Below the pieces are notes generated by a model. That model searched no databases. It saw only the letters and a program-made list of their open reading frames with translations, and was not told the DNA's origin. From assembly GCA_003565815.1 (NCBI GenBank), contig PXAS01000174.1, forward strand, positions 1-33,377: DNA of 33,377 nucleotides, written 5' to 3'. The stretch is from PVC group bacterium. Its GTDB lineage: Bacteria > Verrucomicrobiota > Kiritimatiellia > SS1-B-03-39 > UBA6053. The translations under genes were made by a program, and so were the position numbers. Below are positions 1,758 to 29,070 of this stretch, piece by piece. How positions within the stretch are numbered: position 1 is the stretch's first letter; every line of letters begins with the position of its first letter.

Positions 1758-4700
1758 TTATTTTCGTCTGAATTGGGCGTGTTCATCTGTAAGCGTGCGG
1801 TAATCCGAACTGACGGCCAAGGTGACGTTTACACTGCCTTCCCTGGATTCCAAACGGAGATTCAGGCGGTTTCCGTTCACGGTGCCATTCGCTCGCTGGG
1901 TATCGTTAAATTCCGGGTATTGTTCGAAAAGATGTTTCATTGTCCCCGTCACCTGATTTCCCTGCTGTATGAGGTTTAATTCAAGTTTAACGCGGGTTCC
2001 GCCCTCGTTGATTACCGCCACATAGGTCCCTGTGAGACTCTGCTTTTGGGCGGCCTGAGCTTGGCGGCGCTGCTCCGCCTCCCGCCGGGCTTGTTCTTGA
2101 CGCTTTTGTTCCGCCTCGCGCTCTGCTTGCTGCCGTCGTTGTCGCGCAAGACGCTGCTGCTCCGCTCTGCGCGCTTCCGCATCGCGACGCTGCCGCTCCG
2201 CCGCAAGCTGAGCCTGTTGCTCGGACCGCCTCGCCGCCGCTATTTGGTCGCGTAGCGCTGCAATGCGCTTGGCAACACCATCATTGGCATAGAGTCGTTG
2301 CGCTTCTTCATATTTACCGATGGCTCCGCTGTGGTTTTGGCGCTGTTCAAGGGCGTAGCCTTCTTCGATCAGTTTTTGAGCGAGGGTGCGCTTTTCCAAT
2401 TGACCGCGCAGTCTCTGAATTCGCGCGGCCACCTCTTTATTGGCGTGGATCTGTTGCGCGGCCTCGTATTTTTCAATCGCGCCGGCCAGATCGTCCTGCT
2501 GTTCAAGGGCGTAGCCTTCTTCGATCAGTTTTTGAGCGCGGGTCCGGTTGACCAGTTTCTCCCGCAAGCTCTCAATCCGCTCGGCCACCTCCTCGTCGGG
2601 GTACAGCGCCTGCGCCTCCTCGTACTTCTCAATCGCGCCGGCCAGATCGTCCTGCTGTTCAAGCGCGTATCCTTCTTCAATCAGCTTCTGGGCGCGGGTC
2701 CGGTTGGCCAGTTTCTCCCGCAGGGTCTGAACCCGCTTGGCCACCCCCTCGTCGGGGTACAGCGCCTGCGCCTCCTCGTACTTCTCAATCGCGCTGGCCA
2801 GATCGTCCTGCTGTTCAAGAGCGTAGCCTTCTTCGATCAGTTTTTGAGCGCGGGTGCGCTTTTCCAATTGACCGCGCAGTCTCTGAATCCGCGCGGCCAC
2901 CTCTTTATTGGCGTGGATTTGTTGCGCGGCCTCGTATTTTTCAATCGCGCCGGCCAGATCGTCCTGCTGTTCAAGAGCGTAGCCTTCTTCGATCAGTTTT
3001 TGAGCGCGGGTGCGCTTTTCCAATTGATCGCGCAGTCTCTGAATCCGCGCGGCCACCCCGTCGATTTCGTAGAGCCGCTGGGCGGCTTCATATTTGGCGA
3101 GGGCCGCTGTCAGATGATGCCGCTGTTCGAGTATGTTGCCTTCATTCACCAGTTTTTGAGCGCGGGCACGGTTTGTCAAACGATCGCGCAAGTTCTGGAT
3201 CCGCCCGGCCAACCCGTCGATTTCGTAGATCCGCAGGGCGGCTTCGTATTTGGCGAGGGCCACTTCCAGTTTGCCCTGCTGTTCGAGTGCATTTCCTTCC
3301 CGCACCAAGCGCTCGGCGCGTTTGCGTTTTTCCTGATCTTCTTGGTCCCCGTCCTCCGCAGGAGGCTCAGGTCGGGAATCCAGCACGGTAACCGAGCGTT
3401 GACCCCGAGCAAGCTCCACTCCGGAGGGGGTGCGTGCCGTGACCGCAATGACATAGGTGCCGGGGGCGTGGGCGGAGAAGGTCTGGCTGCGTCCGGTGCT
3501 CCCGTGGGTGCGCCCCCCCTCGGCCGACACCGACCAGGCATAGCGCACTTCGCCGGGCGGCGCGGGGTCGAGGGACACCCCAATGGACACCTGCTGATGG
3601 GTCACGACCGAACCGCGGGGGGCGTTGACCAGTCCGCCCCGCTCCGGATCCCACACTTGCGGCGTCGGCCCCCGGAACCGGGGCTCCTCCACCGTCAGTT
3701 CATAGGTGCCGGGCGTGTAGCTGCCTTTAATCTCCGCGATCCGGTCTCCGGAACCTTTGGCCACCGCGATGGCCTCCAAGGGAATCGGAGCTGCGGGATT
3801 GGCGACGCCCTCTCCGATCACAAAACCGATCTCCGAGGCATTGGACGAATGGGTGTGCCGCTTGGCGGGGCGAAGCCAGCGAAACTCGATCAGTTCTTCC
3901 GGCACCTTCGGTTGGCTGAGCACCTTTACCCTCAGATTCTCTCCGATTTTCGCGTTTTCCTGCGGCGAGAACACCAGTTCGAAGCTCGGGGCCACCACAT
4001 CCACCTCCTGGACCTCCGACTCCGCCACCTTCACCCAGGCATTGCCCTCCCGCGCCTGCAACTCCGCGAACACCCGCACCGTTCCCATGCGACCGAAGGT
4101 GAGGGTGTTGGCTCTGCCTTCCGTGAAAGGGTTCGCGAAAGTGTTGCCCGTCGGGGAGGCATGCCACACCACGCGGGTTGCGAGGTCTTTTCCCGTTCCG
4201 ATGATGGTTGTGGAAAGTCCCAGGGATTGTCCGAACACCACCTCCCGTTGCATTTCGGCAAGCGTAATCTCCGGCTCTCCCTCCAGGACATTGAAGACAT
4301 ACACCTGTGACGTTTCGGTGCGTGTTTTCCCATTTTCGGTTATACGCACATCGGCCCATACCTCGTAACGACCCGGCTCCTTAAAGGTAACCCGGGTAAG
4401 ACCTTCCTTGCTGGTCTTCGGTTCGAATTCCGCAGATCCGGGGTTAGAAAGGAATGCAAACAATAGGATTCCTTCGGTTTCACCGTTTACTGAATCAGGC
4501 CTACGCGGTGGCGCGGCATTTTGCCTCCAGAATTGGCCTTTGTCTTCAGGACGAAAGATGCGTCCGTTCGAACTCCACCACAGAATTGCTCTCCCAATAT
4601 TGATTGCAATTGGATCTGTATCAGTGGGCACATCCTTTCCATGAAGATGTAAAAAGAGTCCTTCTGCTGTTTCTAAAATCCTTCCAGTGGCATGATTGAA

Positions 4701-7700
4701 TTTCGGCGCGATTCGTTTTTCTTGATGTCCCATATCCCTGTCGGGATAACCCCTATCCTCAACGACGGTTTCGGGCCTGATCTTTACCTTATGTCCTCTT
4801 TGCTCAATATGTAGTGAGATCTTGTAATAAATCATGTTAATCCTCCATTCAGAGCTCCATGTTCCCGAAATATTTACGATCTTCCCGTCCGCAGTGGCGT
4901 AAAACTTGTTTGAATTTGGTTGATCCGGCTCTTTCCCTACTTTCCCCATTTCAAATAGCTCTGGATAACGTTTTCGGTACGGCGGGCTGAAATCTAGATC
5001 CACAACATCACCCACCTTCACCTCTCCACCCGAGGTCTCCCCGGCGGAAGAAGGGGTCTCCCCCGGCACCACGTTCACAGGCGATGAAGGTTCCGCGCCT
5101 TCCCTCTGGGCTGGGGAGGCGGAGGGGCCGCCTTGTCCTCCGGATGATCCCGTCTGATCCGGGACGTCTGATGGACGCTGGTCTTTCTTCCCGGTTTGAT
5201 TTTCCGCCCCGGTTTCGGGTTCCGCCCCGTGCTCCGGCTCGTGCTCGGGTTCGGGCTCGGGTTCGGGCTCCGGCGGAGGGAGGCTGATCCTGACCGCATA
5301 GGTTGCTTGCAGAACTTCGGGGTGTCCGCCCTCTTCTTGCGGGGCTGTCCAGCTTGCGGTCACGCTGACCTGATACTCGCCTTCTTCCGGAAAATGCAAG
5401 GATTGGAATTCACCCCTGCCGCGGACCTCACCATCGACACGCCAGGCATAGGTGGCATGGTCAGGAATTTGCCGCGGGTGGGTCGCGAAGACATAGGAAA
5501 CATTGGGTTCGCCGGTGCCGTCCAGCAGATCGGGCGGCGGGATAATCGCCAGTTCCGGCTCGCCCTGCTCTACCAGAACCGTTTGCGGGCGGGCCATGAC
5601 CCGCTCGCCCCCGTTCCAACTGCCCTCGACCTCCCATTCGGCAATCAACTCCACGATATTCGGCCCCGACTGGCTGAAATGAAGTTGAACCTCGGCACCA
5701 ACGCCTGCAGGCTGATAATTGACAAGCCAGCTTATTTCAGCATCGTCGGGAATATTCCTGCGCATTGATCGAAAAGCGTAAGCACGATTCCTCTCGGCCT
5801 CCTCACCCAGATCGTCCGGGAGTTGAATGGCCAGCGAAGGCCCAGCCGCATCATCGTGAATCACCACGGTGATTTCGGCCTTGATGCTGCCGTTACATTC
5901 AACCCGCGTGGACTTAGCCCATGTGGCCTCCACCCGCAGGGTCCGCTGCCCCGCGGTTTCGAAGGTGTGGCTCAGGGTCTCGCCTCGTCCGATAATCCGG
6001 TCGCCTTCACGCCAGACATACTCCGTTTCCGGAGGAATGGCGGCGGCTTCGAGTCCAAAGGCATAGGGGGTGCCGGGAACCGCGCGGTCCTCGATGACAG
6101 CCGCCGGCGGCAGGATCGCGATTGCCCGCTGGATCGCGTCATAATGAGCACGGAATTCCTCCACCAATTCATCAAGCGCATCCCATCCCGCACGCGCTCT
6201 TTCCCAATTGGGATTACGAAAACCGTGGTCCCATATCTGCTTCATATCCCGCCATGCCCGAACGGGCATTGCGCGTCTGCGATTGTCGTGGAACTCGCCC
6301 CGGGCCATGGCGATGTCATTTTCCAGGCCAATGATTTCGGCATAGATCGCGAGGAGAATCCGGCGGTCAAAGGGCGCATCCAGTTGGACCTGGTTGTCAC
6401 AAAGGGCGTCCCTCTTGATATACCACAGCCTCTTTTCATAGGTATCAAACAATTCGACGGCCGACTGCAGCATCTTGGCCGCGACCTGCTGGTCGAATCC
6501 GGGATCGGCGGTCAGGGGGGGCACCCCCGTCAGGGGCCGTGTTTCAAGAGCCTCCTCCCCCCCGGCTCTCCGGTACAGATCCTCCACAGTACCGCGAATC
6601 TCGTGCACGGTCGAATAGGCATCGTAAAAACGCTGCAAGCCCTGCATGGCCTTGATGCGCACCTCTTTGTCGTTGTATGAAAGCCAGAACTCGATCCTGC
6701 TGCGGGGTGTGCGGGTGTACCATACAGCGTTCGGCTCAAAGGTATTATACATAATCTTGGGGCCGTATGCGCATTCATCCTCGAGCCATTCCATTCCCAG
6801 ATCGAACATGTCCAACTCCGTGAAAAGGCGCACGACCTCGTCCAGCAGTGCCAGAGCCGCCTCGTCACCGCCCTCCAGTCCCTGTTCGGCACGGTGGCGG
6901 GTTTCAAGAAAATCGACCACCGCCGCGCACAGCGCCCTCTGGACGTCCGCCCAGGCGGATGCCCGATGTTCCAGCAATCCCTTCATGGCCCGCCTGTGCG
7001 CGGGGTCAAACTCCGCGAGGACCTCCCAGCCGGGCCCGACATTGGCAGGCACGCTCCTGCCCAGCGTGTCGGCGACCTCGTTGATTCTCTCCGTCAGTTT
7101 GGCAACGGCTCCCCGGGCCTGCTGCACACCGCCATGTTGTCCCATGAACGTGGCGCGTCCTCCATACACCGTACTCTCCAGCGCCTTGACAAACGCGCGT
7201 GAACTGAACGCGTTGATGCCGCTGAGTACGTCCTGCCCCAGATTTCTTTCCTTGGACAACTCCAAGGCCCGAACAAACACGCCTTCGACCCAGTAATTCC
7301 CTCCGGGCTTCAACACCTCGTCGAACCACTTGCAGATTGCGTCCGATCCGTCTTTGTACCCGCCCAGTCCCGTGAATGTTCCGTCGGTGAATTCCGCGCT
7401 GGCGTACAGCACCATCAATTGGTGATCCTCCAAAACACCGGAAGTCAGGTTGATCACCGAGTTGCCGATCGACTCGACCACCTGCGGCAGCGCTGACTTG
7501 GGACAAAGCATCAGGATGACCGTCCGCGCCAGCGCCATTCCATCGCCTTCGACAAGGCCCGTGTACATGGCCTCGGCGACGGTCCCGTAGTAGGTGGTCG
7601 ATGCCAGCGTGCGACCCAGAAGAATGGCCAGTTCGGCATCGGATTTCGCGTCGCGCGCCTGCACGGCCAGGTTCAGCCACATGGCCAGGGACTGGGCGCG

Positions 7701-9086
7701 GTTTTGGACCTTCCGGTCGGTTGCCGCCAGGTCGTTGTACACATCGGTCAGGAACCGGGAGGACTCGGTGGGGCGGGTGGTGAGCGCCGAGATTTCCGAA
7801 TTGAAGGTCTTGAGCAGGTTTTGTCCGAACTCCGTTTGTTTAAGAAAATTGCGCAACCTGGTGACATCGTTCTCCGAGATCCGCTCCTGTTCCGCCTTAC
7901 GCCATTGTTGCATCTGCTCGAACTGCTTGTTGACCGGGCCTTTGACCTGTTCCGGCAGGTTGTTGAGATAAGCCGCGCGTTTAGGTAACGGCATATCGTA
8001 AAGTTGCAGGGCGAGGGTGAAGGCGGTCTGACGGGCCAGGGCGGTGTCCGCAGGTTGACGGCTCAGAATGTTTCCGAGCGTATGGATGTAGTCGCTTGTG
8101 GCCTGGGTGCCCAGGGGGGTCACATCATACGATTCGCCCACAGTGGGAACGTAGACGGTTGACTCGAGCTTGGCCCCCGTCTGTGAGGCCAGCCGTTGAT
8201 TCACTTTGTTGATTCGCTGGATGTATTTGTTCCGTTCAATTTCCAACTGGCGGATTTCCGCCCGGGTGCGTTTCCGCTGCGCCTCGCTTTCTTTGCCCAT
8301 TCTGCGGCTGAGTTCCCTCAGTTTGCGCTGTTTCCGCTCGGCCTGCTCGACCATCTCGGTCACGTACGAACCCGCATCCAGCACATCAATCTTCTGGCCG
8401 GACCGGTAACGGGCCTCCACACGCGCGGCTTCGATGCGTTTGTAGGTGTCCGCGCCTTTTCCTTGGAAATAGGTGGCAATCCGGGAGAATTCCTCGGGGG
8501 TGGTGGCGTCGTGGGCCACCATGAAGTCCGTCCCCGTGTCAAAAACACCCGCACTCATCCGCACCGCGCCCCCACCGCGTCGACGCACCTCATTCCCGAC
8601 AGTCTGTCGATAGGCCCGCTCGACCTTTTGAATGTCCTCAAGTGTGACCGGTTTGCCGTCTCTGCGCCTGATCAGGAAATCGGTGTCCGATCCGATGCGC
8701 CATTCCCCGGCATCCGGCGCCACCCGCTGCATGTCCAACTGATAGGCCCCCAGACCGCGAACCGCCTTGCGGGCGATCAGAAGGTTTTCGCTCTGATGCC
8801 AGAACATCGCCTCCTGGTATTGCATGTTCGAGAAGCTGCCGATCCCGTCCAGATGACCGTTATTCCGGGCGGCCATCCCCCGCAGGGTGTGCAGGCGGTT
8901 GATGTTTTTCAATACAATCGCCTGATTGTGCGGATTATTCTGGAGATTTGTGGCTGCCCGCCAGATGGCTTCGTCCGACTCCTGTGCAAGCAGGTTCAGG
9001 GGGGACAAACTTATGGCCAGCAGTATTCCACAGAGGAGAATTTGTTTCGCCCGGACGATTTTTTGGGAGAGCTGATTCATGAGCAT
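1758..9086 (-). CDS. Giant secreted multidomain protein (2442 aa), unknown function
   Basis: Uninterrupted 2442-codon ORF with ATGs at 9086 and 9080; AGAGA lies 7 nt before the latter. Signal peptide: ...ILLAISLSPLNLLA/QE. Architecture read from the translation:
- N-terminal domain shared with the 15751..21438 protein
- ~650-aa helical region
- 3 PKD/Ig-like repeats
- Pro/Glu-rich linker
- low-GC segment
- ~4 further Ig-like repeats (3330-4400)
- 7 x 52-aa TPR-like repeats
- Arg/Glu/Gln-rich helix
- 93-aa beta-rich C-terminal domain. Confidence 0.92.
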   Translation of the reverse strand: MLMNQLSQKIVRAKQILLCGILLAISLSPLNLLAQESDEAIWRAATNLQNNPHNQAIVLKNINRLHTLRGMAARNNGHLDGIGSFSNMQYQEAMFWHQSENLLIARKAVRGLGAYQLDMQRVAPDAGEWRIGSDTDFLIRRRDGKPVTLEDIQKVERAYRQTVGNEVRRRGGGAVRMSAGVFDTGTDFMVAHDATTPEEFSRIATYFQGKGADTYKRIEAARVEARYRSGQKIDVLDAGSYVTEMVEQAERKQRKLRELSRRMGKESEAQRKRTRAEIRQLEIERNKYIQRINKVNQRLASQTGAKLESTVYVPTVGESYDVTPLGTQATSDYIHTLGNILSRQPADTALARQTAFTLALQLYDMPLPKRAAYLNNLPEQVKGPVNKQFEQMQQWRKAEQERISENDVTRLRNFLKQTEFGQNLLKTFNSEISALTTRPTESSRFLTDVYNDLAATDRKVQNRAQSLAMWLNLAVQARDAKSDAELAILLGRTLASTTYYGTVAEAMYTGLVEGDGMALARTVILMLCPKSALPQVVESIGNSVINLTSGVLEDHQLMVLYASAEFTDGTFTGLGGYKDGSDAICKWFDEVLKPGGNYWVEGVFVRALELSKERNLGQDVLSGINAFSSRAFVKALESTVYGGRATFMGQHGGVQQARGAVAKLTERINEVADTLGRSVPANVGPGWEVLAEFDPAHRRAMKGLLEHRASAWADVQRALCAAVVDFLETRHRAEQGLEGGDEAALALLDEVVRLFTELDMFDLGMEWLEDECAYGPKIMYNTFEPNAVWYTRTPRSRIEFWLSYNDKEVRIKAMQGLQRFYDAYSTVHEIRGTVEDLYRRAGGEEALETRPLTGVPPLTADPGFDQQVAAKMLQSAVELFDTYEKRLWYIKRDALCDNQVQLDAPFDRRILLAIYAEIIGLENDIAMARGEFHDNRRRAMPVRAWRDMKQIWDHGFRNPNWERARAGWDALDELVEEFRAHYDAIQRAIAILPPAAVIEDRAVPGTPYAFGLEAAAIPPETEYVWREGDRIIGRGETLSHTFETAGQRTLRVEATWAKSTRVECNGSIKAEITVVIHDDAAGPSLAIQLPDDLGEEAERNRAYAFRSMRRNIPDDAEISWLVNYQPAGVGAEVQLHFSQSGPNIVELIAEWEVEGSWNGGERVMARPQTVLVEQGEPELAIIPPPDLLDGTGEPNVSYVFATHPRQIPDHATYAWRVDGEVRGRGEFQSLHFPEEGEYQVSVTASWTAPQEEGGHPEVLQATYAVRISLPPPEPEPEPEPEHEPEHGAEPETGAENQTGKKDQRPSDVPDQTGSSGGQGGPSASPAQREGAEPSSPVNVVPGETPSSAGETSGGEVKVGDVVDLDFSPPYRKRYPELFEMGKVGKEPDQPNSNKFYATADGKIVNISGTWSSEWRINMIYYKISLHIEQRGHKVKIRPETVVEDRGYPDRDMGHQEKRIAPKFNHATGRILETAEGLFLHLHGKDVPTDTDPIAINIGRAILWWSSNGRIFRPEDKGQFWRQNAAPPRRPDSVNGETEGILLFAFLSNPGSAEFEPKTSKEGLTRVTFKEPGRYEVWADVRITENGKTRTETSQVYVFNVLEGEPEITLAEMQREVVFGQSLGLSTTIIGTGKDLATRVVWHASPTGNTFANPFTEGRANTLTFGRMGTVRVFAELQAREGNAWVKVAESEVQEVDVVAPSFELVFSPQENAKIGENLRVKVLSQPKVPEELIEFRWLRPAKRHTHSSNASEIGFVIGEGVANPAAPIPLEAIAVAKGSGDRIAEIKGSYTPGTYELTVEEPRFRGPTPQVWDPERGGLVNAPRGSVVTHQQVSIGVSLDPAPPGEVRYAWSVSAEGGRTHGSTGRSQTFSAHAPGTYVIAVTARTPSGVELARGQRSVTVLDSRPEPPAEDGDQEDQEKRKRAERLVREGNALEQQGKLEVALAKYEAALRIYEIDGLAGRIQNLRDRLTNRARAQKLVNEGNILEQRHHLTAALAKYEAAQRLYEIDGVAARIQRLRDQLEKRTRAQKLIEEGYALEQQDDLAGAIEKYEAAQQIHANKEVAARIQRLRGQLEKRTRAQKLIEEGYALEQQDDLASAIEKYEEAQALYPDEGVAKRVQTLREKLANRTRAQKLIEEGYALEQQDDLAGAIEKYEEAQALYPDEEVAERIESLREKLVNRTRAQKLIEEGYALEQQDDLAGAIEKYEAAQQIHANKEVAARIQRLRGQLEKRTLAQKLIEEGYALEQRQNHSGAIGKYEEAQRLYANDGVAKRIAALRDQIAAARRSEQQAQLAAERQRRDAEARRAEQQRLARQRRQQAEREAEQKRQEQARREAEQRRQAQAAQKQSLTGTYVAVINEGGTRVKLELNLIQQGNQVTGTMKHLFEQYPEFNDTQRANGTVNGNRLNLRLESREGSVNVTLAVSSDYRTLTDEHAQFRRK
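2040..2225 (-). other. Highly charged Arg/Glu/Gln helix (ER/K-type single alpha-helix or coiled-coil spacer) inside the 2442-aa protein
   Basis: The translation is SEQQAQLAAERQRRDAEARRAEQQRLARQRRQQAEREAEQKRQEQARREAEQRRQAQAAQKQ. It is 62 aa made almost entirely of E, R, Q, A and K, with no Gly or Pro. Confidence 0.5.
2226..3329 (-). repeat. Seven tandem 156-nt (52-aa) TPR-like coding repeats with a 468-nt higher-order duplication
   Basis: The protein unit is TRAQKLIEEGYALEQQDDLAGAIEKYEAAQ..(V/I)A.RIQ.LR.QLEKR, repeated 7 times. DNA 2345-2510 and 2813-2978 (offset 468 nt) differ at only 4 positions in my hand alignment. Confidence 0.9.
4440..5025 (-). other. In-frame low-GC segment (~190 aa, unknown domain) within the giant ORF
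   Basis: Hand counts of 60-nt lines between 4441 and 4980 give 35-50% G+C, with one line at 55%. Line 5221-5280 gives 78%, and lines 4081 and 4261 give 53-58%. The frame stays open (…YRKRYPELFEMGKVGKEPDQPNSNKFYATADGKIVNISGTWSSEWRINMIYYKISLHIEQRGHKVKIRPE…). Confidence 0.6.
5030..5280 (-). repeat. Low-complexity Pro/Glu/Ser/Gly linker including a (PE)n run
   Basis: The translation is PPPEPEPEPEPEHEPEHGAEPETGAENQTGKKDQRPSDVPDQTGSSGGQGGPSASPAQREGAEPSSPVNVVPGETPSSAGETSGGE. Confidence 0.7.
5285..6110 (-). repeat. Three PKD/Ig-like repeats in the 2442-aa protein
   Basis: Three ~90-aa units share the pattern Y.W..(D/N)G...G.G......F...G...V.(V/L).A.W. Examples: YVWREGDRIIGRGETLSHTFETAGQRTLRVEATW and YAWRVDGEVRGRGEFQSLHFPEEGEYQVSVTASW. 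Confidence 0.55.
8097..8981 (-). other. Shared N-terminal domain (copy 1) of the two giant proteins; family not recognised
   Basis: It aligns block by block with 15838-16692:
- NRLHTLRG / ARLNTLGR
- ARKAVRGLGAY / ARRAAKEVGVS
- GSDTDFLIRRRDGKPV / GTDTDLIVYRGPDGKLI
- FDTGTDFM / IDANTDFM
- AARVEARY / AVRVEYQM
- IDVLDAGSYV / ISVNDAGRYV
- KYIQRINKV / KYIDRINTV. Confidence 0.7.
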
Positions 9087-15750: not shown

Positions 15751-18700
15751 ATGCTAAATTCATTGCGTTTGATTCGTTTTACTTATGGCGGTCTCTTGGC
15801 CGTACTTTTCCTGTTCTCAGTCAACCTTTTGGCTCAGGAGGCGTCCGATGCGCGGATTATTGACGCGGCCCGGCGGGTTCATGAGGGCACGGCCAGTCTT
15901 TCCGACAAGTCGGTGGTCATCAACAACAATGCCCGGCTGAACACGCTGGGCAGGTCGGGGGGGCTTGCGCCGGGCAATCCGGGCCTCAACCATTCTTACT
16001 ACAACAGTTCTCAAGATTATTTCAGCCGCGCCAATCAGATCGCGGCCCGTCGTGCGGCCAAAGAGGTCGGGGTATCCATCCGGGTTCAACCCCGTAAACC
16101 CGGTCAAGCGAGTTTTAATCCGGGAACGGACACGGATTTGATTGTGTACCGGGGCCCTGACGGAAAGCTGATCAGCAAGCAGCAACTCGACGCCCTGGAC
16201 GCGGCCCACCAGAAGCATCTGAAAAAAATTCTGCGCAGCATGGGTCAGACGCCTCCCGCGGGACGAATTGACGCGAATACGGATTTCATGCCCCACCCGG
16301 ATCACACCACCCGGGATACGTTTGTGAGTCAATCCAACCAGATCAACGCGCGGGGAGGCGCGGCCTACACCGATCCCGCGGCGGTGCGGGTGGAGTACCA
16401 AATGCGGGATCCCAATGGTCCGACTCGTATTTCGGTGAATGACGCCGGACGCTATGTTTCGCAACAGCAGTTCCATGCGGACCGTCATTTTCGCGCCGCA
16501 GACCAGTTGAACCATCATGCGAATGCCTTGGAGAGGCAGTATGGGCCGCAAGCAACCGCGGCACAAAAGTCGCAGATCGCCCATCTTCGGGATCAGGCGA
16601 GCATCTTCCAACAAAACGGGGCCAAGTATATCGACCGAATCAACACGGTGACCGACACCGTGGCCCGGCAAAACCATGTGGACGTTTCCCGCGGCCCGGA
16701 AACCGATTTGGACCGGGCGGCCCGGCGGGCGGCCGGCCCCCGGCGGACATTACCAGACGATCCCGCGCCCGTGGGCCGCCGGAAAGTCAGTGCCGTGGAC
16801 ATGGCCACGGCAAAAACCGCGGGCCTGAGCGATCAGCTTACGCGCAAGGCGGTGATGGCCCATGCGGACACGATGTCGAGAATCGCCGCCGCGAACCCCG
16901 GGCAAGCGGCGGCGGCCCGGGACAGCATCGCGCGGACCATGGCGCGCCTGCCCCCGGCGCAACAAGGTGAGATTCTCCAAAACCTGGAGCGGACCGCCGG
17001 CAGGGCCTTCACCAGTGACGTGGCGAAACAGGCCCGCCAATACCAGCGTCCAATTCGGCCCTCGGCCACCCAAACCCTTACCCAAAAGGCGCTGGAGGCG
17101 GTGGGCACCACGCTGAAAGCCGTGGCGATTCTCAATGTGGCCGCGGACATCAAAGAAATTCTCACGGCGGAGGACCCGGCGGCTGTTTTGGCTCAAAAAG
17201 CGACGGGTTATGCGGACGGGCTGTCGGGAGGCTCCATCACCACGGCCGAGAAACTCGGGGATTTTGAGCACCTGCAGGTGGAGCACGACGCATATCTTCA
17301 GGGCGTGGAGCGGGTGCTGCATCAGGCGATAGAAGTCAAACTCCGCCGTATGGGAGTGGATCGAGAGGAAGCTCGGCGCATTTCCAACTCCTTTTACCGT
17401 GGGGATTTGGAACCGTTTCGGGCCAAGGCCCGGGAGTTGAAGGCTGCGGGCATTGTGGATCCCCATCCCGAGCGCGGGGGTTTGGAGGGGGTGAGCGCCT
17501 GGGATCAGGATGACACCGCATTCGAGCGGCTGCTGGGCATCGGGGAGGGAATTGTCGAGGCCGGGAAACGTGCCGGGGAATTTGCCAAGGACGCGGTAGT
17601 GGATACCGGAGAAATTTTGGTGGGGCTCACAGAGTCCGGGGTTCTGAAAGAGTTGGTCTGGGAGCGCGACCCGCGTCTGCTGATCGACATCTACCAAGAA
17701 CGTAAGCGTACCGCCAACCAAACCGCCCTGAGCCGGGAGGAGATGATCGCCTATCTGGAGGCTCTGGGCGCTTCGCCCGTGGGGGCCCGCCGGGCGACCG
17801 CCGCTCTTTTGGATGACGGAGATGTTTCCGACTTCCGCAGGCTCGTGGCCGTGCTTCAGGATCGTCGCGCCAGGCGGGAGCGAGAGGCGGCCGAAGAAGA
17901 TGAGACATTTCCCGGAGAATTCGGGGAGGGGGAAGAAGCGGGGCCGGAAGACCTCCGGGGGATGGAGCCCATGTCGGTCGCGGAGATTGTGGATGCCGGC
18001 GGGGTAAGAATCGTCCGGGACTCCGCCAATGTCCCGGAGGATGCTTTGCGGGAGGGAACCCAAGTGATGAGCTCCTCCGGGAGTTGGGCCAAAGCCTATG
18101 GCGGCTGGCGTACCGAAGAAAATCCACCCAACAAGCCCAAAGAAGTCGGGCCGTTTGCCGTGCGCCCGGGCAAGTATCGGGCGCACCTTTCTTATTCGCC
18201 CGACATCCCCGCCAGCATGACCGCCGGAAACTATAATACCGGGATGTCGGTTTCCTTTTCCTCTCCGGGAAATACAGGCGGAGGCGGAGTGGCGCGCATC
18301 CGGAACAGCGCCCGAAACAAGGCCAGCGGGGAGGGCTCCCGGGACTTTGTGATCGACCGTCCGGGGCAGATCACGGTGCGTTTTGGTATGGCCACCAGCC
18401 ATGGCCAGGCCGGGGGCTACGCGGAACACGCCCAAAGCTATACGGGATCCATCACGTTGTTGGAGCCTTCCCTCCAGGAAACCGCGGAAGCGGGGGCCAA
18501 AATCGCTTCGGGGGACCTCATTCAGGTCGGGCGTCAGGATGCCACCGTGGCCTTGTGGGACGGGACTTTGGTGACCCTGCGCGCGGGCAGTGAGGTGCGG
18601 GTGGAAATGACCCCCGAGGACAGCGTGCGGGTCACCGTGCTCAAAGGGTCCGGACGTTTTGCGCGAAAAGGGGCGGCCTTTGGCAGTTTGGAGGTGGTGT

Positions 18701-21438
18701 CACCCGATGGCAAAAACCTGATTCGCCCGCGCGGCACCGATTTTATTGTGTCGGCTTCGGGAGTGGATGTGGTGGAGGGCGCGGTCGAAATCAACACCGA
18801 GGGAGAAGCGCCGGTCCTGGTGGAAGCGGGCCAACGCTTCCATGCCGGAACCCGCGAACTGCAGCCCTTGGACCTGAATTCGCTGGGTCCGGCTCTTTCC
18901 GCAGACGGATTCCCGCTGCTTCGGGAGTATTGGATGCCGGATTCGGAAGAGTATGGTGAAAAAGACTCTCGATTTGCGAACAATTCCGTGCCGGGGGGAT
19001 GGTGGCTTGCCGATCCTCCTTTGCGAAGCGCTTCCCGGCCCCTGGAAATTGAAACGCCCACCGAGGGAAGCCTTCGTCTCAGCGTACCGGCCAACAGCCG
19101 TCTGGATGATTCAGGCAACACAGCTCCGCGCCTCATGCACAAGGTGACCGGTGATTTTATCCTGGAAGCGGAGGTCAAGCTGGAGGGGGATGGCGCGGAG
19201 TGGGCCGGTTTGCAGTTTATCGCCAGGTCCCCGGGTTCCTTCGCGGGTTCGCGGCACGGCCAGTTCCCGCGAACGGCGGGGAATGATGCCGGGCAGCATT
19301 ACTGGCTCGGCCCTTATCTCCTGGCCAGAACCGGGGGCGGCGTGATCCGGGTTCCCGCGCTCAACCAGTCCCGACATGCCGATTGGCCCGGGGCGGGCGA
19401 CGGTCCGGTACGGGTTTTTGTGGCCCGTTTGGACGGCCAATTTGCGATCTATTGGAGTCTGGACGGAGACAATTGGCACTTGGCCGCTTTGCCGCAGGCC
19501 GATCTCCCGGAAACGATTTGGGTGGGTTGGGCCTTTGTGAACACCCCGCGCGCGCAGACTCCCGCCCTGTTTCAGCTCGACAAGGTCCGGCTCGTCACCG
19601 CGCCCTCCGGTGAGATTTCCCCGCCGGCCTGGAGTGTCACCGCGCAGAACGGGCGAGCCTCGTTGGAGGAGGATGGTTCCGTGCGGCTGGTATTGGACGG
19701 GACGGCTCCGGGCTCGGCCCGCGCCTTCTCGGGACGAATGTTGGCGGGAGATTTTGATGTCGAAGCCCGCTTCGACACCGAACCCGGTGAGGCAAATCCC
19801 GGGGAAATCCGCCGTTGGTCGCTTGCCGCCGTTTACCCCGGGGAGAATGGGCTTGCCGTTGGCTGCGAGATGGGCAATACGGGTCAACGCTATGGTCTAT
19901 TCATTCAATCCAGGCCGGAATTTTCGGCACGGACCGGTTTTTCCGCCGTTTCCGGCGTGATTTCGGAACCCGCGGGCAGGTTGCGGCTCAAGCGCGAAGA
20001 CCGCATCCTGACCGCGTACTACTGGCGTGGAGGGCAGTGGGAATACTGGCGGGAAGCACCCTACCGGGACAAGCAAAAAAAGGAGTACGCCGGCCCGGTC
20101 TACCTCCGGCTTGAAGTCTCCAATGGCCACACCGAACAAAGCGCGGCGCCCATGGAAGTTCGCTTTCACGTGCAAGCCCTGTACGAAGAGAAGCCGGAGA
20201 CCTCCCCTCCCGAAGTTTCCCCGGAAAATTTGGCCCGGGCACGGCGTCTTCGTGCCGAAGCCGCCTGGCAGGAAGCCAGAGGTGAACAGAATTTGGCCCT
20301 GGAGGCTTATTTGAAAAGCCTCGAGTTTTTGCCGGATGAGGAAATCGAGGCCAAAATCAAAAGCCTTGATCCCGGCAGGCTGGCTCCGGTGCTTTCCCTG
20401 ACCGAACCCTACAGGGCATATCTGTCCGAAGGCACCGCCGCCGATTGGTACCGCGTAACCCTTCCCGCTTATGGCGATTTGAACGTGAAAGCCGAGGGCT
20501 ATGACGTGTTAAATTTTGGGTTGGACATCCTTACGGATCAACGGGTGATTGCAAACGCACGACCCAACAACACCCCCTCGAACGCGGTCTCGCGGACGGG
20601 TCTTGCCCCCGGAGACTATTTTGTGCGCCTGAACCGCAGAAGTGGAGACGGCCCTTACGTGATCGAGGCCCGGCTTGACCCCCAGGCCAAGGCCTCAGAC
20701 CCTGAGCCCAACGACAGCTTTGAGGAGGCACACCCCATTGCCCACGGAAGTAAGACCTCCGGTCTTTTGGGATATGGGGATGGTGTCACTTATGACCGTA
20801 TCGATTGGCACGCGATCGAACTGGAGGCCCCCGGCGATCTGCTGGTAAATGTCGAGGGGGAGGAGAGCCTCACCCACCTGAACCTCTTCCTGTATGATAT
20901 GGATGGACGGCGCGAACTGGGCAGGGACACAGGCGGCACGAAAAATTCCCGGAGTGTCGCCCGTGCGGGTCTTGCCCCGGGAACGTACTATGCTCCGGTC
21001 AGACAACTCAGGGGCCATGGCGCCTACCAAATCCATCCACAATTTACGCCTTCCGCCCATGCCGAGGTCTGGGAGTTGCCGCCGAACGACACCCTCGAAG
21101 ATGCTCGGGCCATTCCTTTGAATCAAAAGACCGTCGGGCTGCTCGGCTATGGCAATGTGAAAGGATCGGACCTGGTGGATTGGTTCTCCATGACCCTCGA
21201 AAGCCCCGGTGATTTGCGGGTGGAGGTTCACGGGGAGGATTCCCTCGGCAATTTCGTGCTTTACCTCTACGAGACAGACGGGAAGCGCATACTCGGCCGG
21301 GATACAGGCGGCACGAAAAATTCCCGCGCCGTCTCCGCAGGCCTGCAGCCGGGAACCTATTATCTGCAGGTGCGACACGGCTCAGGCCATGGCGCATTCT
21401 TCGTGCACCCAACCCATACCCCTCCAAGTCCGGACTGA
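15751..21438 (+). CDS. Giant secreted multidomain protein (~1895 aa), paralogous at its N-terminus to the 2442-aa protein
   Basis: The long ORF (track start 15703) begins on TTG. ATG 15751 gives the signal peptide MLNSLRLIRFTYGGLLAVLFLFSVNLLA/QE. Architecture: shared N-terminal domain, helical region, FecR-like domain, two concanavalin/DUF1349-like jelly-roll domains, one TPR-like module and three PPC (pre-peptidase C-terminal)-type domains. Confidence 0.92.
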   Translation: MLNSLRLIRFTYGGLLAVLFLFSVNLLAQEASDARIIDAARRVHEGTASLSDKSVVINNNARLNTLGRSGGLAPGNPGLNHSYYNSSQDYFSRANQIAARRAAKEVGVSIRVQPRKPGQASFNPGTDTDLIVYRGPDGKLISKQQLDALDAAHQKHLKKILRSMGQTPPAGRIDANTDFMPHPDHTTRDTFVSQSNQINARGGAAYTDPAAVRVEYQMRDPNGPTRISVNDAGRYVSQQQFHADRHFRAADQLNHHANALERQYGPQATAAQKSQIAHLRDQASIFQQNGAKYIDRINTVTDTVARQNHVDVSRGPETDLDRAARRAAGPRRTLPDDPAPVGRRKVSAVDMATAKTAGLSDQLTRKAVMAHADTMSRIAAANPGQAAAARDSIARTMARLPPAQQGEILQNLERTAGRAFTSDVAKQARQYQRPIRPSATQTLTQKALEAVGTTLKAVAILNVAADIKEILTAEDPAAVLAQKATGYADGLSGGSITTAEKLGDFEHLQVEHDAYLQGVERVLHQAIEVKLRRMGVDREEARRISNSFYRGDLEPFRAKARELKAAGIVDPHPERGGLEGVSAWDQDDTAFERLLGIGEGIVEAGKRAGEFAKDAVVDTGEILVGLTESGVLKELVWERDPRLLIDIYQERKRTANQTALSREEMIAYLEALGASPVGARRATAALLDDGDVSDFRRLVAVLQDRRARREREAAEEDETFPGEFGEGEEAGPEDLRGMEPMSVAEIVDAGGVRIVRDSANVPEDALREGTQVMSSSGSWAKAYGGWRTEENPPNKPKEVGPFAVRPGKYRAHLSYSPDIPASMTAGNYNTGMSVSFSSPGNTGGGGVARIRNSARNKASGEGSRDFVIDRPGQITVRFGMATSHGQAGGYAEHAQSYTGSITLLEPSLQETAEAGAKIASGDLIQVGRQDATVALWDGTLVTLRAGSEVRVEMTPEDSVRVTVLKGSGRFARKGAAFGSLEVVSPDGKNLIRPRGTDFIVSASGVDVVEGAVEINTEGEAPVLVEAGQRFHAGTRELQPLDLNSLGPALSADGFPLLREYWMPDSEEYGEKDSRFANNSVPGGWWLADPPLRSASRPLEIETPTEGSLRLSVPANSRLDDSGNTAPRLMHKVTGDFILEAEVKLEGDGAEWAGLQFIARSPGSFAGSRHGQFPRTAGNDAGQHYWLGPYLLARTGGGVIRVPALNQSRHADWPGAGDGPVRVFVARLDGQFAIYWSLDGDNWHLAALPQADLPETIWVGWAFVNTPRAQTPALFQLDKVRLVTAPSGEISPPAWSVTAQNGRASLEEDGSVRLVLDGTAPGSARAFSGRMLAGDFDVEARFDTEPGEANPGEIRRWSLAAVYPGENGLAVGCEMGNTGQRYGLFIQSRPEFSARTGFSAVSGVISEPAGRLRLKREDRILTAYYWRGGQWEYWREAPYRDKQKKEYAGPVYLRLEVSNGHTEQSAAPMEVRFHVQALYEEKPETSPPEVSPENLARARRLRAEAAWQEARGEQNLALEAYLKSLEFLPDEEIEAKIKSLDPGRLAPVLSLTEPYRAYLSEGTAADWYRVTLPAYGDLNVKAEGYDVLNFGLDILTDQRVIANARPNNTPSNAVSRTGLAPGDYFVRLNRRSGDGPYVIEARLDPQAKASDPEPNDSFEEAHPIAHGSKTSGLLGYGDGVTYDRIDWHAIELEAPGDLLVNVEGEESLTHLNLFLYDMDGRRELGRDTGGTKNSRSVARAGLAPGTYYAPVRQLRGHGAYQIHPQFTPSAHAEVWELPPNDTLEDARAIPLNQKTVGLLGYGNVKGSDLVDWFSMTLESPGDLRVEVHGEDSLGNFVLYLYETDGKRILGRDTGGTKNSRAVSAGLQPGTYYLQVRHGSGHGAFFVHPTHTPPSPD
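15838..16692 (+). other. Shared N-terminal domain (copy 2) of the two giant proteins
   Basis: See the block alignment listed for 8097-8981. The GTDTD motif is encoded at 16123-16137. Confidence 0.7.
18505..18800 (+). other. FecR-like beta domain
   Basis: GDLIQVGRQDATVALWDGTLVTLRAGSEVRVEM...VTVLKGSGRF......LEVVSPDGKNLIRPRGTDFIVSASGVDVVEGAVEI matches the FecR-domain pattern (l.t...s.a.l.l.dGs.v.l...s.l.....l..G...f......f.v.tp...v.v.GT.F.v). Recognised by eye only. Confidence 0.55.
18971..20185 (+). repeat. Two concanavalin-A-like (LamG/DUF1349-type) jelly-roll domains
   Basis: Copy 1: ...LMHKVTGDFILEAEVKLEGDGAEWAGLQFIA...VRVFVARLDGQFAIYWSLDGDNWHL...LFQLDKVRL. Copy 2: ...GRMLAGDFDVEARFDTEP...GRLRLKREDRILTAYYWRGGQWEYW...VRFHVQAL. 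The GDF..E..v and R.g......S.DG..W patterns are typical of this fold. Confidence 0.5.
20221..20370 (+). other. Locus-specific TPR-like module (copy in the ~1895-aa protein)
   Basis: NLARARRLRAEAAWQEARGEQNLALEAYLKSLEFLPDEEIEAKIKSL aligns with the copies at 10154-10315, 30318-30479 and the 2226-3329 array. Confidence 0.6.
20398..21423 (+). repeat. Three tandem PPC (bacterial pre-peptidase C-terminal)-type domains
   Basis: Copies 2 and 3 start with EPNDSFEEAHPI / PPNDTLEDARAI. They continue G.LGYG....D.(I/V)DW....LE.PGDL.V.V.GE.SL....L(F/Y)LY..DG.R.LGRDTGGTKNSR......L.PGTYY..VR...GHGA(Y/F), the classic PPC pattern. Copy 1 (20398-20685) is degenerate but keeps DWYRVTLPAYGDLNV...LAPGDYFVRL. Confidence 0.75.
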
Positions 21439-21615
21439 AAATATCCCAAACCCCAAGCATACTTTTTGTAGAAAAAACTTTTTTTGTGTTGCTTTCACTG
21501 CGCCACCTCCCCTATATTACTCATAGGACATAACAATTACATTCATCCCGGAAAACTTTTGATGAACGTGTCACATTTTCTTCGCCCCAAACCAGAATGT
21601 TCAAAAGGGAATGAC

Positions 21616-23697
21616 ATGAAACAAAATGCTCGTTTAATCCTGACGGCCCTCGCCGCTTTTTTCGCGGTAACGCTTCCCATAAGCGCACAAGAACCCGCCA
21701 CCCCCCGGGTCCCGGTTCTTGTTCCCGGTAAAACCCTCCCCCTGCGTGTTCTTACCCGTCCGTTTTCCAGTGTACGGGCCGAACCCTCTGTGGATGCCGC
21801 TCTCTTGCGGGAGAATGTCCCCGCGTTTCAACCGTTTTATGTGTACACCCGACCTCCTGTGACTGACTTTGGCGAAGCGGAAGGCTGGTACGAAGTCGGA
21901 GACAGCACCCGCGGCGACATCGCGGGATGGATGCAAGCCGCCGATGTGATGGAATGGCACCAAGCCATGTGCCTGGCCTACACCCACCCCGACGGTCGAG
22001 ACCCGGTCATGATGTTCGGGCGCAAGGCCCCCCTCATGGCATTAGTGGCCGCTCCCGATCGGGACGGTCAGGTCGAAGCACTGTTGGAAACACTGGACTC
22101 AGGGGATATCCCGGAAGATTTCCCCCTGGTCTCGGTAGAACCCAAGCGCCCGGTCTTCATGTTCATCGAAGAACAATTCTACCTCCTACCCATTCTGAAC
22201 CACGAGCCCGTGGAGATGGAGGGTCGCGAAGGCCGCCTGCTTCGCCTCGCCGCAGCCACCACCGCCGCCGGAGGACGCGGGTCCACCACCCTTCAGGATG
22301 AAAATTTCGTCAAAAGTGCTGTAACCGGCAGCGACGCCCCGTCCGAAAAATTGAAAGACTTGCAAGTGGAGGTGGTTTATGTGATCGACACCACCGCCAG
22401 CATGCAGCCTTACATCGACGGAACCCGTTCCGCCATCCAGCGCGTGGCCGAACGCATTGCCAACAATCCCGACGTTGCCGATAACGTCCGTTTTGGCCTA
22501 TGGGCCTTCCGCGATTCCCTCGATATTCCCGGCATCGAGTACCTCACCAAAAATTTCACCTCGGAACTGGTGGCCGCCTCCGATTTTGTCGGAATTCTTG
22601 AACAGGTCGAAGAAGCCAAAGTCGGCAGCCAGGGCTATCCCGAGGATGTGTTCTCCGGGATTGACAAAGCCCTGACAGAAACCGCCTGGTCGCCCGACTC
22701 CCTCAAGTTTATCATCCTCATCGGTGATGCCCCCTCCCATCCAACGGGGCACCGATGGAATGCCTCCGGAAAAGGCGCAGCGGAACTGCGCCAGTTTGCC
22801 AACGACGCCCGGATTTTTATTCAATCCGTTCACATCAAGGAAATGCGGGACCCCCGCGTATTGCCATACCATGAACTGACCGAACAGCAGTTTGCCAGAC
22901 TTGCCGAAAACCGGGGTGTTTCCGCGGACGGGGGATCTTCCTATCTTGCGGTCGCCGCCCATGACGAAGCCGCGTTCGCCGCTCTCTCCGACTCCATGCT
23001 CAAGGTCTTCGAGTCCGTCCTGGAATCGGCCCGAGCAGAGGGAAATCTCGCCGCAGTCACCCGGACACAAAGCCCGGACGACTTGGAGATCACCTTGGAT
23101 GTGAACCGCAAAACCGCGGAGGAGGCCGCCCGCGAGGCCGATGCGGTCACCTCGCAAATGGTGCGGGCCGCCCTCGTGGACTGGATCGGCAAAGTGGAAA
23201 ACGTGCAAGCCCCCCGCGACATTACCGCCTGGGTGGTGGACAAAGACCTGCGCGATCCCGCCATTCCCTCTCTGGAGGTTCGGGTGCTGGTGAACAAAAA
23301 TCAGCTCGATTCCCTGCGCACCGTTCTTCAGGAACTGATGGTGGCGGGCCGCCGCGGACAGATCGCCAATGAAACCTTCTTTGATTCCCTTCAGGCCACC
23401 TCCGCGACCCTCTCCGTCACCCCGGAACAAATCCGCAACGCCCGCACCCTCTCGGAAACCGGGCTAATACCGGACTTTCTGGTCGGGCTCCCCTACAACA
23501 GCCGCATCATGGCCATGAGCAATGACGACTGGCGCGCCTGGTCTCAGGACCAGCAGGACGAATTCCTCAACGATCTGGACGCCAAAATCAGTTACTACGG
23601 TGCCCTGCACGACGAACCGGGGGTATGGGTCCGCCTGAACCCCGGAGACGATCCGGACGAACATGTTCACCCCCTCAGCCTGGAAATGCTTCCCTGA
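21616..23697 (+). CDS. Secreted SH3b-like + von Willebrand factor A (vWA) domain protein
   Basis: ATG 21616 has AAGGGA upstream. Signal peptide: MKQNARLILTALAAFFAVTLPISA/QE. SH3b-like segment at ~21735-21960: VRAEPS...FQPFYVY...EGWYEVGD..GDIAGWM. vWA domain at ~22360-22845, with a MIDAS-type DTTAS encoded at 22387-22401 (VVYVIDTTASMQPYI), then RFGLWAFRD and FIILIGDAPSH. The ~280-aa C-terminal region is unassigned. Confidence 0.88.
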   Translation: MKQNARLILTALAAFFAVTLPISAQEPATPRVPVLVPGKTLPLRVLTRPFSSVRAEPSVDAALLRENVPAFQPFYVYTRPPVTDFGEAEGWYEVGDSTRGDIAGWMQAADVMEWHQAMCLAYTHPDGRDPVMMFGRKAPLMALVAAPDRDGQVEALLETLDSGDIPEDFPLVSVEPKRPVFMFIEEQFYLLPILNHEPVEMEGREGRLLRLAAATTAAGGRGSTTLQDENFVKSAVTGSDAPSEKLKDLQVEVVYVIDTTASMQPYIDGTRSAIQRVAERIANNPDVADNVRFGLWAFRDSLDIPGIEYLTKNFTSELVAASDFVGILEQVEEAKVGSQGYPEDVFSGIDKALTETAWSPDSLKFIILIGDAPSHPTGHRWNASGKGAAELRQFANDARIFIQSVHIKEMRDPRVLPYHELTEQQFARLAENRGVSADGGSSYLAVAAHDEAAFAALSDSMLKVFESVLESARAEGNLAAVTRTQSPDDLEITLDVNRKTAEEAAREADAVTSQMVRAALVDWIGKVENVQAPRDITAWVVDKDLRDPAIPSLEVRVLVNKNQLDSLRTVLQELMVAGRRGQIANETFFDSLQATSATLSVTPEQIRNARTLSETGLIPDFLVGLPYNSRIMAMSNDDWRAWSQDQQDEFLNDLDAKISYYGALHDEPGVWVRLNPGDDPDEHVHPLSLEMLP

Positions 23698-23708
23698 AGA
23701 GGCTCCCC

Positions 23709-27849: not shown

Positions 27850-27911
27850 ATCGGGCCTTCGAATCCAAACCTTCCAATTCATCCAACCACACCCCATTGA
27901 AAGACAAGCTG

Positions 27912-28553: not shown

Positions 28554-28568
28554 ACCCGGGAGCCCATC

Positions 28569-29063: not shown

Positions 29064-29070
29064 CCTGCCC

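Follow-up and report, generated by a model that had tools for sequence, protein, structure and literature searches.

A conserved, exported and possibly nucleotidyltransferase-like head domain on giant proteins of diderm environmental bacteria

Nucleotidyltransferases (NTases) of the Pol-beta type transfer, in a divalent-metal-dependent manner, a nucleoside monophosphate from a nucleoside triphosphate (NTP) onto the hydroxyl of an acceptor. In bipartite NTases such as ANT/AAD and the TUTases, a helical lobe holds the nucleotide donor, and Lys, Tyr and Arg residues of this lobe bind triphosphate and base. The adenylyl-removing NTase domain of GlnE is an example of the reverse reaction. The NTase fold is defined by an hG[GS] motif at the start of a short second core helix, which lies between strands 1 and 2, by [DE]h[DE]h on strand 2 and by h[DE]h on the adjacent strand 3 (PMC2794190). 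Here we describe the N-terminal domain, hereafter the head, of two giant proteins, A and B, encoded in a stretch of 33,377 nucleotides (hereafter the window; contig PXAS01000174.1 of assembly GCA_003565815.1) from a PVC group bacterium of the Kiritimatiellia. The head defines a family that is solid and new to annotation databases, and its fold assignment is on marginal statistics. That the head has an NTase-like core is probable in our judgement; that it is a divergent, exported, metal-dependent NTase-like catalytic domain with variable binding tails is a reading to which we give about an even chance. The positions of both proteins and of the main elements of their heads are listed below in window coordinates.

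1758..9086, (-) strand: protein A, 2442 amino acids (aa), from the list of open reading frames (ORFs) and the translation; in order, signal peptide, head, A-type region of ~850 aa, PKD-like repeats, PEPE linker and 52-aa TPR-like tandem repeats
8982..9086, (-) strand: signal peptide of A, aa 1-35, hydrophobic over aa 10-35 and ending in ...LNLLAQE
8172..8975, (-) strand: head domain of A, aa 38-305, from the AlphaFold2 model and the family profile matches
8679..8693, (-) strand: G132-S-D134-T-D136 of A, start of core strand 2, putative metal-binding pair
8520..8531, (-) strand: T186-D187-F-M of A, core strand 3, putative third carboxylate
8442..8444, (-) strand: Y215 of A, invariant Tyr at the entry of the helical lobe
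8214..8228, (-) strand: K287-Y288-I-Q-R291 of A, in the last long helix of the head
15751..21438, (+) strand: protein B, 1895 aa from the ATG at 15751, in an ORF that opens at a TTG at 15703; in order, signal peptide, head, dark region, FecR-like domain, weak DUF1349-like match and PPC repeats
15847..16680, (+) strand: head domain of B, aa ~33-310, paralog of the head of A, with a profile match over aa 20-331
16123..16137, (+) strand: G125-T-D127-T-D129 of B, counterpart of the GSDTD of A
16279..16290, (+) strand: T177-D178-F-M of B, counterpart of the TDFM of A

Compared by BLASTP, A and B give one significant alignment (A aa 11-302 with B aa 5-307, 28% identity over 311 aa, E=2e-22), and nothing significant aligns outside the N-termini. 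At the sequence level, the paralogy of the two heads is far beyond chance. The region 8097-8981 (-), in which an initial annotation of this DNA had noticed the domain, encodes A aa 36-330; the fold itself ends at about aa 305, and aa 306-330 form a low-confidence linker. The sequence of A is that of the database protein P0004, whose start corresponds to Met3 of A, and the sequence of B is that of P0005. The leader of B, like that of A, ends in NLLAQE. The signal peptide of A is presumably cleaved, and a lipobox was looked for in the A leader without being found. Pfam sees tail domains only, namely PKD and TPR_2 in A and FecR-like and PPC in B. The ~850-aa region behind the head of A is common only to the A-type relatives P0006-P0012 and P0092. 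A search of the PDB sequences with the post-head regions (A aa 331-1000 and B aa 331-930) gave no match.

An exhaustive profile search over 1.84 billion cluster representatives (clusters at 50% identity) placed 190 representatives in the head family at E<=1e-3, of which 148 at E<=1e-10. A word-indexed protein search gave only 3 close relatives (~52% identity), even with a 28-sequence profile. In 149 of the 150 listed members, no more than about 80 residues precede the match to the head, the exception being P0147 (aa 173). Over 152 family sequences (the 150 listed plus A and B), the median length is 1111 aa and the maximum 2915 aa. Scans of A, B and 28 diverse heads with Pfam, NCBIfam and PADLOC gave no match over the head, and phmmer and profile searches of the PDB sequences with the head returned noise only (PAL, FEN-1 and MAM33, E above 0.06). 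With 190 representatives and no match in these databases, the view of the initial annotation that this is an unrecognised conserved N-terminal domain holds. No match was found by Foldseek of the head model against viral structures or by tblastn of both heads against plasmids, and a literature search for exported NTase-fold proteins gave nothing relevant. A signal-like N-terminal hydrophobic segment is present in 125 of the 134 members with complete N-termini, in line with the secretion that had been proposed from the sequence of the window.

Members of the family occur in diderm bacteria of the environment, namely Thioalkalivibrio, Allochromatium, Rhodoferax and other Burkholderiales, Verrucomicrobia and Kiritimatiellia. 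The named hosts are Thioalkalivibrio paradoxus, T. nitratireducens, Allochromatium humboldtianum, a Kiritimatiellia metagenome-assembled genome (MAG), a Verrucomicrobia MAG, and Rhodoferax and Burkholderiaceae MAGs. The homologs of Thioalkalivibrio are annotated as 'PKD domain-containing protein' or 'FecR domain-containing protein'. Behind the head, the proteins carry PKD, TPR, FecR, PPC, Laminin_G_3, WSC, Laminin_B or MgtE_N domains, or nothing recognisable, and most members that are not A-type have at most a short common stretch there. Since the sequences diverge beyond the head, the head is the one constant module of the family.

Residue conservation was counted in an alignment of 140 heads, about 18-42% identical to the head of A, whose numbering is used throughout. 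D134, D136, Y215 and Y288 are each found in 140/140 sequences, followed by K287 (139/140), G132 (135/140) and R291 (133/140). D187 is present in 133/140. Position 133 is T in 120/140 and S in 10/140, so that the DxD motif of the family reads P-G-[TS]-D-[TS]-D. Behind D187, F188 is kept in 105/140 heads and M189 in 119/140. Further strongly conserved polar positions are N62, N66, Y90, Q94, N101, Q120, E224, R228, Y241, E244 and K252. Across these divergent heads, the polar residues show an active-site-like invariance. The initial annotation had located its acidic motifs exactly (GSDTD at nucleotides 8679-8693, GTDTD at 16123-16137, and TDFM about 50 aa further on; TDFM lies 51 residues beyond the DxD motif), and the homolog alignment that it had proposed as a check of the Asp residues found D134 and D136 kept in 140/140 heads. 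The invariance that it had ascribed to these motifs stands for D134 and D136 and nearly so for D187, but not for the first Asp of 'D..TDFM' (FDTGTDFM is A aa 182-189), since D183 is D in 62/140 and N in 57/140. A small-residue element G(A/V)(Y/S) had also been pointed out upstream (GLGAY, A aa 111-115). Its G113 is conserved in 118/140 sequences, but it is the sole conserved position of the element. Y215, Y288, K287 and R291 are downstream residues, equally invariant, that had not been remarked on.

AlphaFold2 gave a model of the head with pLDDT 80 from a 5-sequence alignment, and with pLDDT 94 and pTM 0.89 from a 28-sequence alignment. The head of A is predicted to consist of an N-terminal three-helix unit, then an NTase-like core, then a C-terminal helical lobe. 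In the confident model, whose numbering is that of A minus 37, three N-terminal helices and a tiny hairpin are followed by H50-75, E78-82, a 15-residue loop, E98-104, H112-134, E149-153 and H160-172, and the lobe is made of H181-192, H198-226 and H231-266. The order of the core is hence helix-strand-loop-strand-helix-strand-helix, with three strands. The two Asp residues of the DxD motif are model residues 97 and 99, directly before and within E98-104, the second core strand. D187 is model residue 150, within E149-153, the third core strand. Y215 (model Y178) stands just ahead of the lobe, and K287, Y288 and R291 (model K250, Y251 and R254) are on H231-266. A long antiparallel helical hairpin closes the head in this model.

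The core strands of the model are in NTase order, but with a loop in place of helix 2. On the second strand, the sequence D134-[TS]-D136-[YVFI] at the start of E98-104 corresponds in 140/140 heads to [DE]h[DE]h, and [TV]-D187-[FIL] within E149-153 corresponds in 133/140 to h[DE]h, with strand order taken along the chain. Searched against the PDB with Foldseek, the confident model retrieved Pol-beta-type NTases as 34 of the top 50 matches; nine proteins are represented, namely TbTUT4, RET1, RET2, GLD-2, Pol lambda, Pol mu, AAD(9), the SSO NTase 2RFF and ILF2/3. The 5-sequence model also retrieved AAD(9) and TUT4, as well as CdnE and OAS3. One pre-specified comparison was made with hhalign, between the 140 heads and 121 minimal NTases of the HI0073 family (the sequence of HI0073 is identical to 1NO5_A, and the 120 members collected all have PF01909 and PF18765). 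Its best local alignment puts GSDTDFLI on YSDLDLAI and the following helix on helix 3, with ATTPEEFSRI on ATTSEDFREI. In this alignment G132-[TS]133, which directly abuts the DxD, pairs with the 'YS' of YSDLDL in the minimal NTase. Among 150 column-shuffled templates (mean score 12.3, standard deviation 2.6), 2/150 reach the 20.5 obtained with the true template, and the reversed template scores 10.9.

Several results weigh against this assignment and against catalysis by the head. No hG[GS] with a helix 2 was found: strand 1 is followed by Q120 and a variable loop of 8-14 residues, in which no helix is predicted. The initial annotation had likened GLGAY of A and VGVS of B to hG(G/S). This equivalence fails, because G113 stands where helix 1 ends, ahead of strand 1, and the canonical place is after strand 1. 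The Foldseek matches are not significant (best E=0.32, global TM score <=0.28 among the top 50), the hhalign score of 20.5 is marginal (P=0.021, probability 2.2%), and hhalign pairs the third Asp of the template with the semi-conserved D183, not with D187. D187 is itself replaced by Ser in 7/140 members. The Pfam, NCBIfam, PADLOC and PDB profile searches gave no NTase match to the head. Finally, the head is exported, and neither the periplasm nor the cell exterior normally provides NTPs. All similarity lines point one way, and each is marginal. The NTase-like character suggested in the initial annotation thus gains the DxD on strand 2, the Asp on strand 3 and the NTase-rich Foldseek lists, but it lacks the GS motif and helix 2 and has marginal statistics. 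Because one defining feature, hG[GS] with helix 2, is missing, membership of the superfamily is not established.

A DxD with a distal Asp occurs in GT-A glycosyltransferases, HAD phosphatases and Toprim and PIN-type nucleases, and the head could belong to one of these other classes. We consider this barely plausible. In the model, the three core strands are split by long helices, and there is no 5-7-stranded Rossmann-like sheet. The DxD follows P-G-[TS] at the start of a strand, whereas in HAD, Toprim and GT-A proteins it closes a hydrophobic strand. None of these folds is among the top 50 Foldseek matches of either PDB search. A GT-A glycosyltransferase was rejected as it has a Rossmann-like sheet of 6-7 strands, against three core strands here and a DxD behind P-G-T at the strand start. 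In HAD phosphatases, motif I is hhhhDxDx[TV] at the C-terminal end of strand 1 in a Rossmannoid fold, and in the head the DxD is preceded by [FY]-x-P-G-[TS] instead of a hydrophobic strand; this class was likewise rejected. The topology and the Foldseek lists also spoke against lysozyme-like, Toprim, PIN and classical-palm readings, which were abandoned.

The analysis establishes the domain and its family, the invariant residues, the predicted topology, the signal for export and the linkage to the operon described below. In the NTase-like reading, the binding of metals, the catalysis, the function of the helical lobe, the kind of donor and acceptor and the site at which the head acts are all inferred. 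The head would be an autonomous, Sec-exported globular domain (A aa 38-305, B aa ~33-310), the core of which is predicted to be a divergent, minimal Pol-beta-type NTase-like fold. A pair of divalent cations would be held by D134 and D136 on strand 2 together with D187 on strand 3, its neighbour. The helical lobe would pack on the core, and Y215, K287, Y288 and R291 may hold a phosphorylated, nucleotide-like donor, by analogy with the bipartite NTases. Its reaction would then be the metal-dependent transfer of a phosphoryl or nucleotidyl group or, in the reverse direction, phosphodiester cleavage or phosphorolysis. The C-terminal modules (PKD, TPR, FecR, PPC, LamG and WSC) would bring it to its target, and one head on unrelated tails is what is expected of a catalytic module with variable targeting. 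Three ways out of the question of nucleotide supply can be proposed: the head could act inside a target cell, it could catalyse a reverse, phosphorolytic or hydrolytic reaction, as the GlnE domain does, or it could be functionally coupled to the ATP-binding cassette (ABC) transporter whose genes are linked to those of head proteins, as described below.

A hydrophobic stretch recurs about 190 aa behind the head, within 100-300 aa (A aa ~470-560 and B aa ~440-470). A Kyte-Doolittle 19-mer above 1.6 is present 100-300 aa behind the head in 23/117 members versus 5/117 anywhere further downstream. The head could accordingly be imagined as a toxin warhead, i.e. an NTase-like effector that acts inside a protist grazer or a competing bacterium and is delivered in the manner of AB toxins by this hydrophobic translocation segment and by receptor-binding modules. 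The layout would fit, with a DxD enzyme-like head, the hydrophobic stretch and then variable binding domains that differ between members, and action in a target cell would solve the nucleotide supply; CyaA and the large clostridial toxins have a similar layout. However, the maxima of A (1.29) and B (1.40) are below the hydrophobicity threshold, and in the Pfam, NCBIfam and PADLOC scans no domain known from toxins, translocation or immunity was detected. Further objections are the nature of the hosts (free-living autotrophs and freshwater bacteria) and the passage across the outer membrane that would have to follow Sec export. We regard such a toxin as quite improbable.

The surroundings of the two genes bear on the function of the head. 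A and B are divergently oriented. The interval between them encodes three proteins, all with hydrophobic signal-like N-termini and probably exported: a Sel1-repeat protein, one of 400 aa, and one of 1298 aa in which Big_9, cadherin, LamG and fn3 domains were recognised. Downstream of B, eight genes with overlapping or abutting ORFs form a linked envelope operon, the products of which were assigned by Pfam and NCBIfam scans and by topology prediction.

21484..31835, (+) strand: linked envelope operon downstream of B, eight genes
21484-23697, (+) strand: vWA-like protein, 737 aa
23625-24473, (+) strand: LolD/DevA/FtsE-type ABC ATPase, with best scores against the LolD, DevA, FtsE and MacB models
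24470-26305, (+) strand: FtsX-type permease, 611 aa, with a first transmembrane segment at aa 21-53, a ~420-aa periplasmic domain and transmembrane segments 2-4 at aa 476-603
26302-27849, (+) strand: FGE-sulfatase (GldK-like) protein
27822-28553, (+) strand: Gly-zipper protein
28569-29063, (+) strand: coiled-coil lipoprotein
29071-30255, (+) strand: S41 C-terminal processing peptidase
30252-31835, (+) strand: exported protein, 527 aa

In Allochromatium (locus L005), the genes for the vWA-like protein, ABC ATPase, FtsX permease, FGE-sulfatase, Gly-zipper protein and S41 peptidase keep this order and immediately precede an A-type head gene. The metagenome loci L014 and L017 likewise carry this six-gene set upstream of their B-type head genes, and so does L013 up to the contig end. 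In the Verrucomicrobia MAG locus L009, the first four operon genes lie downstream of a B ortholog, up to the locus end; this ortholog is 85% identical to B, and the downstream genes are 82-92% identical, so that the window must stem from a near relative of the organism of this MAG.

L005, 1-9900: operon
L014, 1100-9800: operon
L017, 1100-9800: operon
L013, 1-5900: operon
L009, 14900-19917: operon

Head genes and operon are thus linked in six sampled loci, with the window counted (window, L005, L009, L013, L014 and L017). The other loci show no ABC operon within the available 10 kilobases. As giant genes take up most of the downstream flank there, absence of the operon is not proven. From the exported neighbours and the genes of a type VII (mechanotransmission-type) ABC transporter, it can be said that head proteins are in an envelope-associated gene neighbourhood. 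The conserved operon may be an uncharacterised envelope system.

This linkage brings in another explanation, in which the head is a non-catalytic N-terminal module for docking or anchoring on an envelope partner, e.g. a lipoprotein or the periplasmic domain of the FtsX-type permease. In this case, the acidic triad would serve as a site for structural Ca2+ or Mg2+, and adhesion or binding would be the function of the variable C-terminal part. FtsX-type permeases grip helical hairpins of EnvC and PcsB, and the head is predicted to end in a long antiparallel helical hairpin. It stands directly behind the signal peptide in nearly all listed members, type VII ABC transporter, lipoprotein and S41 protease genes adjoin head genes in the six loci, and the head has no significant enzyme match. 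On the other side, the invariant D, D, D, Y, K, Y and R, together with the conserved N62, N66, Y90, Q94, N101, E224 and E244, look more like a substrate pocket than a Ca2+ site, and a DxD at a strand start with a third Asp on the next strand is, in the model, the catalytic geometry of NTases. Moreover, most loci with sequenced flanks are without an ABC operon within 10 kilobases. We consider such a non-catalytic head unlikely.

Returning to the head as an NTase-like enzyme, a bolder form of this reading sees in the head proteins a new class of giant effectors exported by Sec, and in the head their catalytic warhead, which would lack GS motif and helix 2 and work outside the cytoplasm of the producer, with the conserved operon, from the vWA-like gene to the S41 gene, as a dedicated export and maturation machine. 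In one version, the hydrophobic segment downstream would translocate the head into a target cell, and there it would act. The other version has it act in the envelope, where the type VII ABC transporter would couple to it the hydrolysis of cytoplasmic ATP by mechanotransmission. To our mind, this is a long shot.

Further observations concern the genes and proteins themselves. Two head genes stand in tandem in L012 (137-3025 and 3285-7673). Both types, which also occur together in the window, are present in T. nitratireducens (A-type AGA34993.1, B-type AGA33992.1). Such pairs of head genes suggest that A-type and B-type paralogs are co-inherited. In several loci, a shorter head protein of ~900 aa is encoded directly before a conserved, headless giant ORF (~2000 aa), and in L006 the headless giant ORF is upstream of an A-type gene.

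L013, 8637-14882: headless giant ORF
L014, 12676-18921: headless giant ORF
L017, 12487-18735: headless giant ORF
L015, 2765-10030: headless giant ORF
L006, 848-7066: headless giant ORF

Short database proteins (P0001 and P0002) were considered as stand-alone heads and rejected, as they are interrupted ORFs and A-like sequence runs on past both breaks. L001 has a frameshift at a C7 homopolymer (~1811-1815) near the head/body junction of a close A-type relative, and L002 has an in-frame TAG (1386-1388) near the head/body junction, behind which A-like sequence goes on in the same frame. P0003 also looks frameshifted, after FMVA. The interruptions in L001, L002 and P0003 are probably assembly errors, although three out of three is notable.

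In the tail of A (2342-3307 (-), aa ~1920-2250), about six TPR-like units are repeated in tandem, each of 156 base pairs (52 aa), with 77-81% DNA matches. Some of the protein copies are near-identical (RTRAQKLIEEGYALEQQDDLAGAIEKYE...), which suggests a recent expansion of the repeat. Between the PKD-like region and the remainder of A lies an acidic Pro-Glu low-complexity linker (PPPEPEPEPEPEHEPEHGAEPE...; 5150-5290 (-), A aa ~1268-1310), in which the sole HExxH string of A is found, HEPEH at aa 1282. This string is spurious and was rejected as a protease site. The earlier remark had been that no HExxH or other protease or toxin signature was seen in either protein. The mature 527-aa protein of the operon (30252-31835 (+), aa ~22-45) and the Sel1-repeat protein (9092-10393 (-), aa ~26-45) both open with (E/D)EL..ARRLRA(E/D)AAY(L/Q)E, and a variant of this motif, ARARRLRAEAAWQE, is found inside B (aa ~1478-1510). 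The ARRLRA-type motif may, from its sequence, be a common TPR-like interaction module of the proteins of this locus. Two paralogs with FGE-sulfatase domains flank the region, one just downstream of A (146-1624 (-)) and the other inside the ABC operon (26302-27849 (+)).

If the NTase-like catalytic reading is true, a family of catalytic domains that counts 190 or more clusters (50% identity) has so far escaped annotation. Some of the largest proteins that sulfur-oxidising, freshwater and verrucomicrobial bacteria export would be headed by it, and the only labels that these now bear are 'PKD/FecR domain-containing' and 'hypothetical'. Were a two-metal NTase-like site to work outside the cytoplasm, the origin of its donor substrate and of its energy would be a concrete question open to test, and the recurrent linkage to type VII ABC and S41 genes suggests a new envelope system. 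Experiments are feasible, since homologs are carried by the cultured strains Thioalkalivibrio paradoxus ARh 1, T. nitratireducens DSM 14787 and Allochromatium humboldtianum DSM 21881. The head family merits at least its own Pfam or NCBIfam model. What would be new here is an exported, GS-less, NTase-like head family, without annotation and widespread in diderm environmental bacteria.

Among known systems, giant toxins such as Bordetella CyaA and the large clostridial toxins offer an analogy of architecture only, with a catalytic-looking N-terminal DxD head, a hydrophobic region and variable or repetitive C-terminal binding modules. Unlike them, the head proteins have a Sec signal peptide and non-pathogenic hosts, and they show no sequence or fold match to these toxins, whose catalytic folds are others (a GT-A fold in the large clostridial toxins and that of a class II cyclase in CyaA). 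The type VII ABC systems (FtsEX-EnvC/PcsB, MacB and LolCDE) offer an analogy of context, with an ATPase of the LolD/DevA/FtsE/MacB type, a permease of FtsX topology and a predicted helical hairpin on the head. In contrast to FtsEX-type systems, there is no LytM, CHAP or amidase partner, and the operon is present in only six sampled loci, with the window counted.

The minimal NTases (MNT; PF01909/PF18765; HI0073, 1NO5; SSO NTase 2RFF) resemble the head in their three-strand core flanked by helices, in [ST]-D-x-D-h at the start of strand 2 with an Asp on strand 3, and in the TT..(E/D)F..I pattern of the next helix, which aligns between both families. In the Foldseek list, 102 of the 111 residues of 2RFF are aligned to the head model. 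Unlike an MNT, the head has no hG[GS] and no helix 2, and it has about 50 extra helical residues at its N-terminus and a C-terminal helical lobe of about 120 residues. It is exported as part of proteins of 600-2900 aa, whereas MNTs are cytoplasmic antitoxins of ~100 aa, and its similarity to them is not significant (hhalign P=0.02, probability 2%). From the bipartite NTases (TbTUT4 2Q0C; AAD(9)/ANT 6SXJ), the head differs in its extracytoplasmic location, the missing GS motif, a global TM score <=0.28 and an identity of 10-16%. Bipartite NTases are nevertheless the best Foldseek matches (2q0c_B, E=0.32; 6xz0, TMq 0.28 over 242 aligned columns), and they are alike in having an NTase-type core followed by an all-helical lobe. 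As in bipartite NTases, the lobe of the head carries invariant Lys, Tyr and Arg residues.

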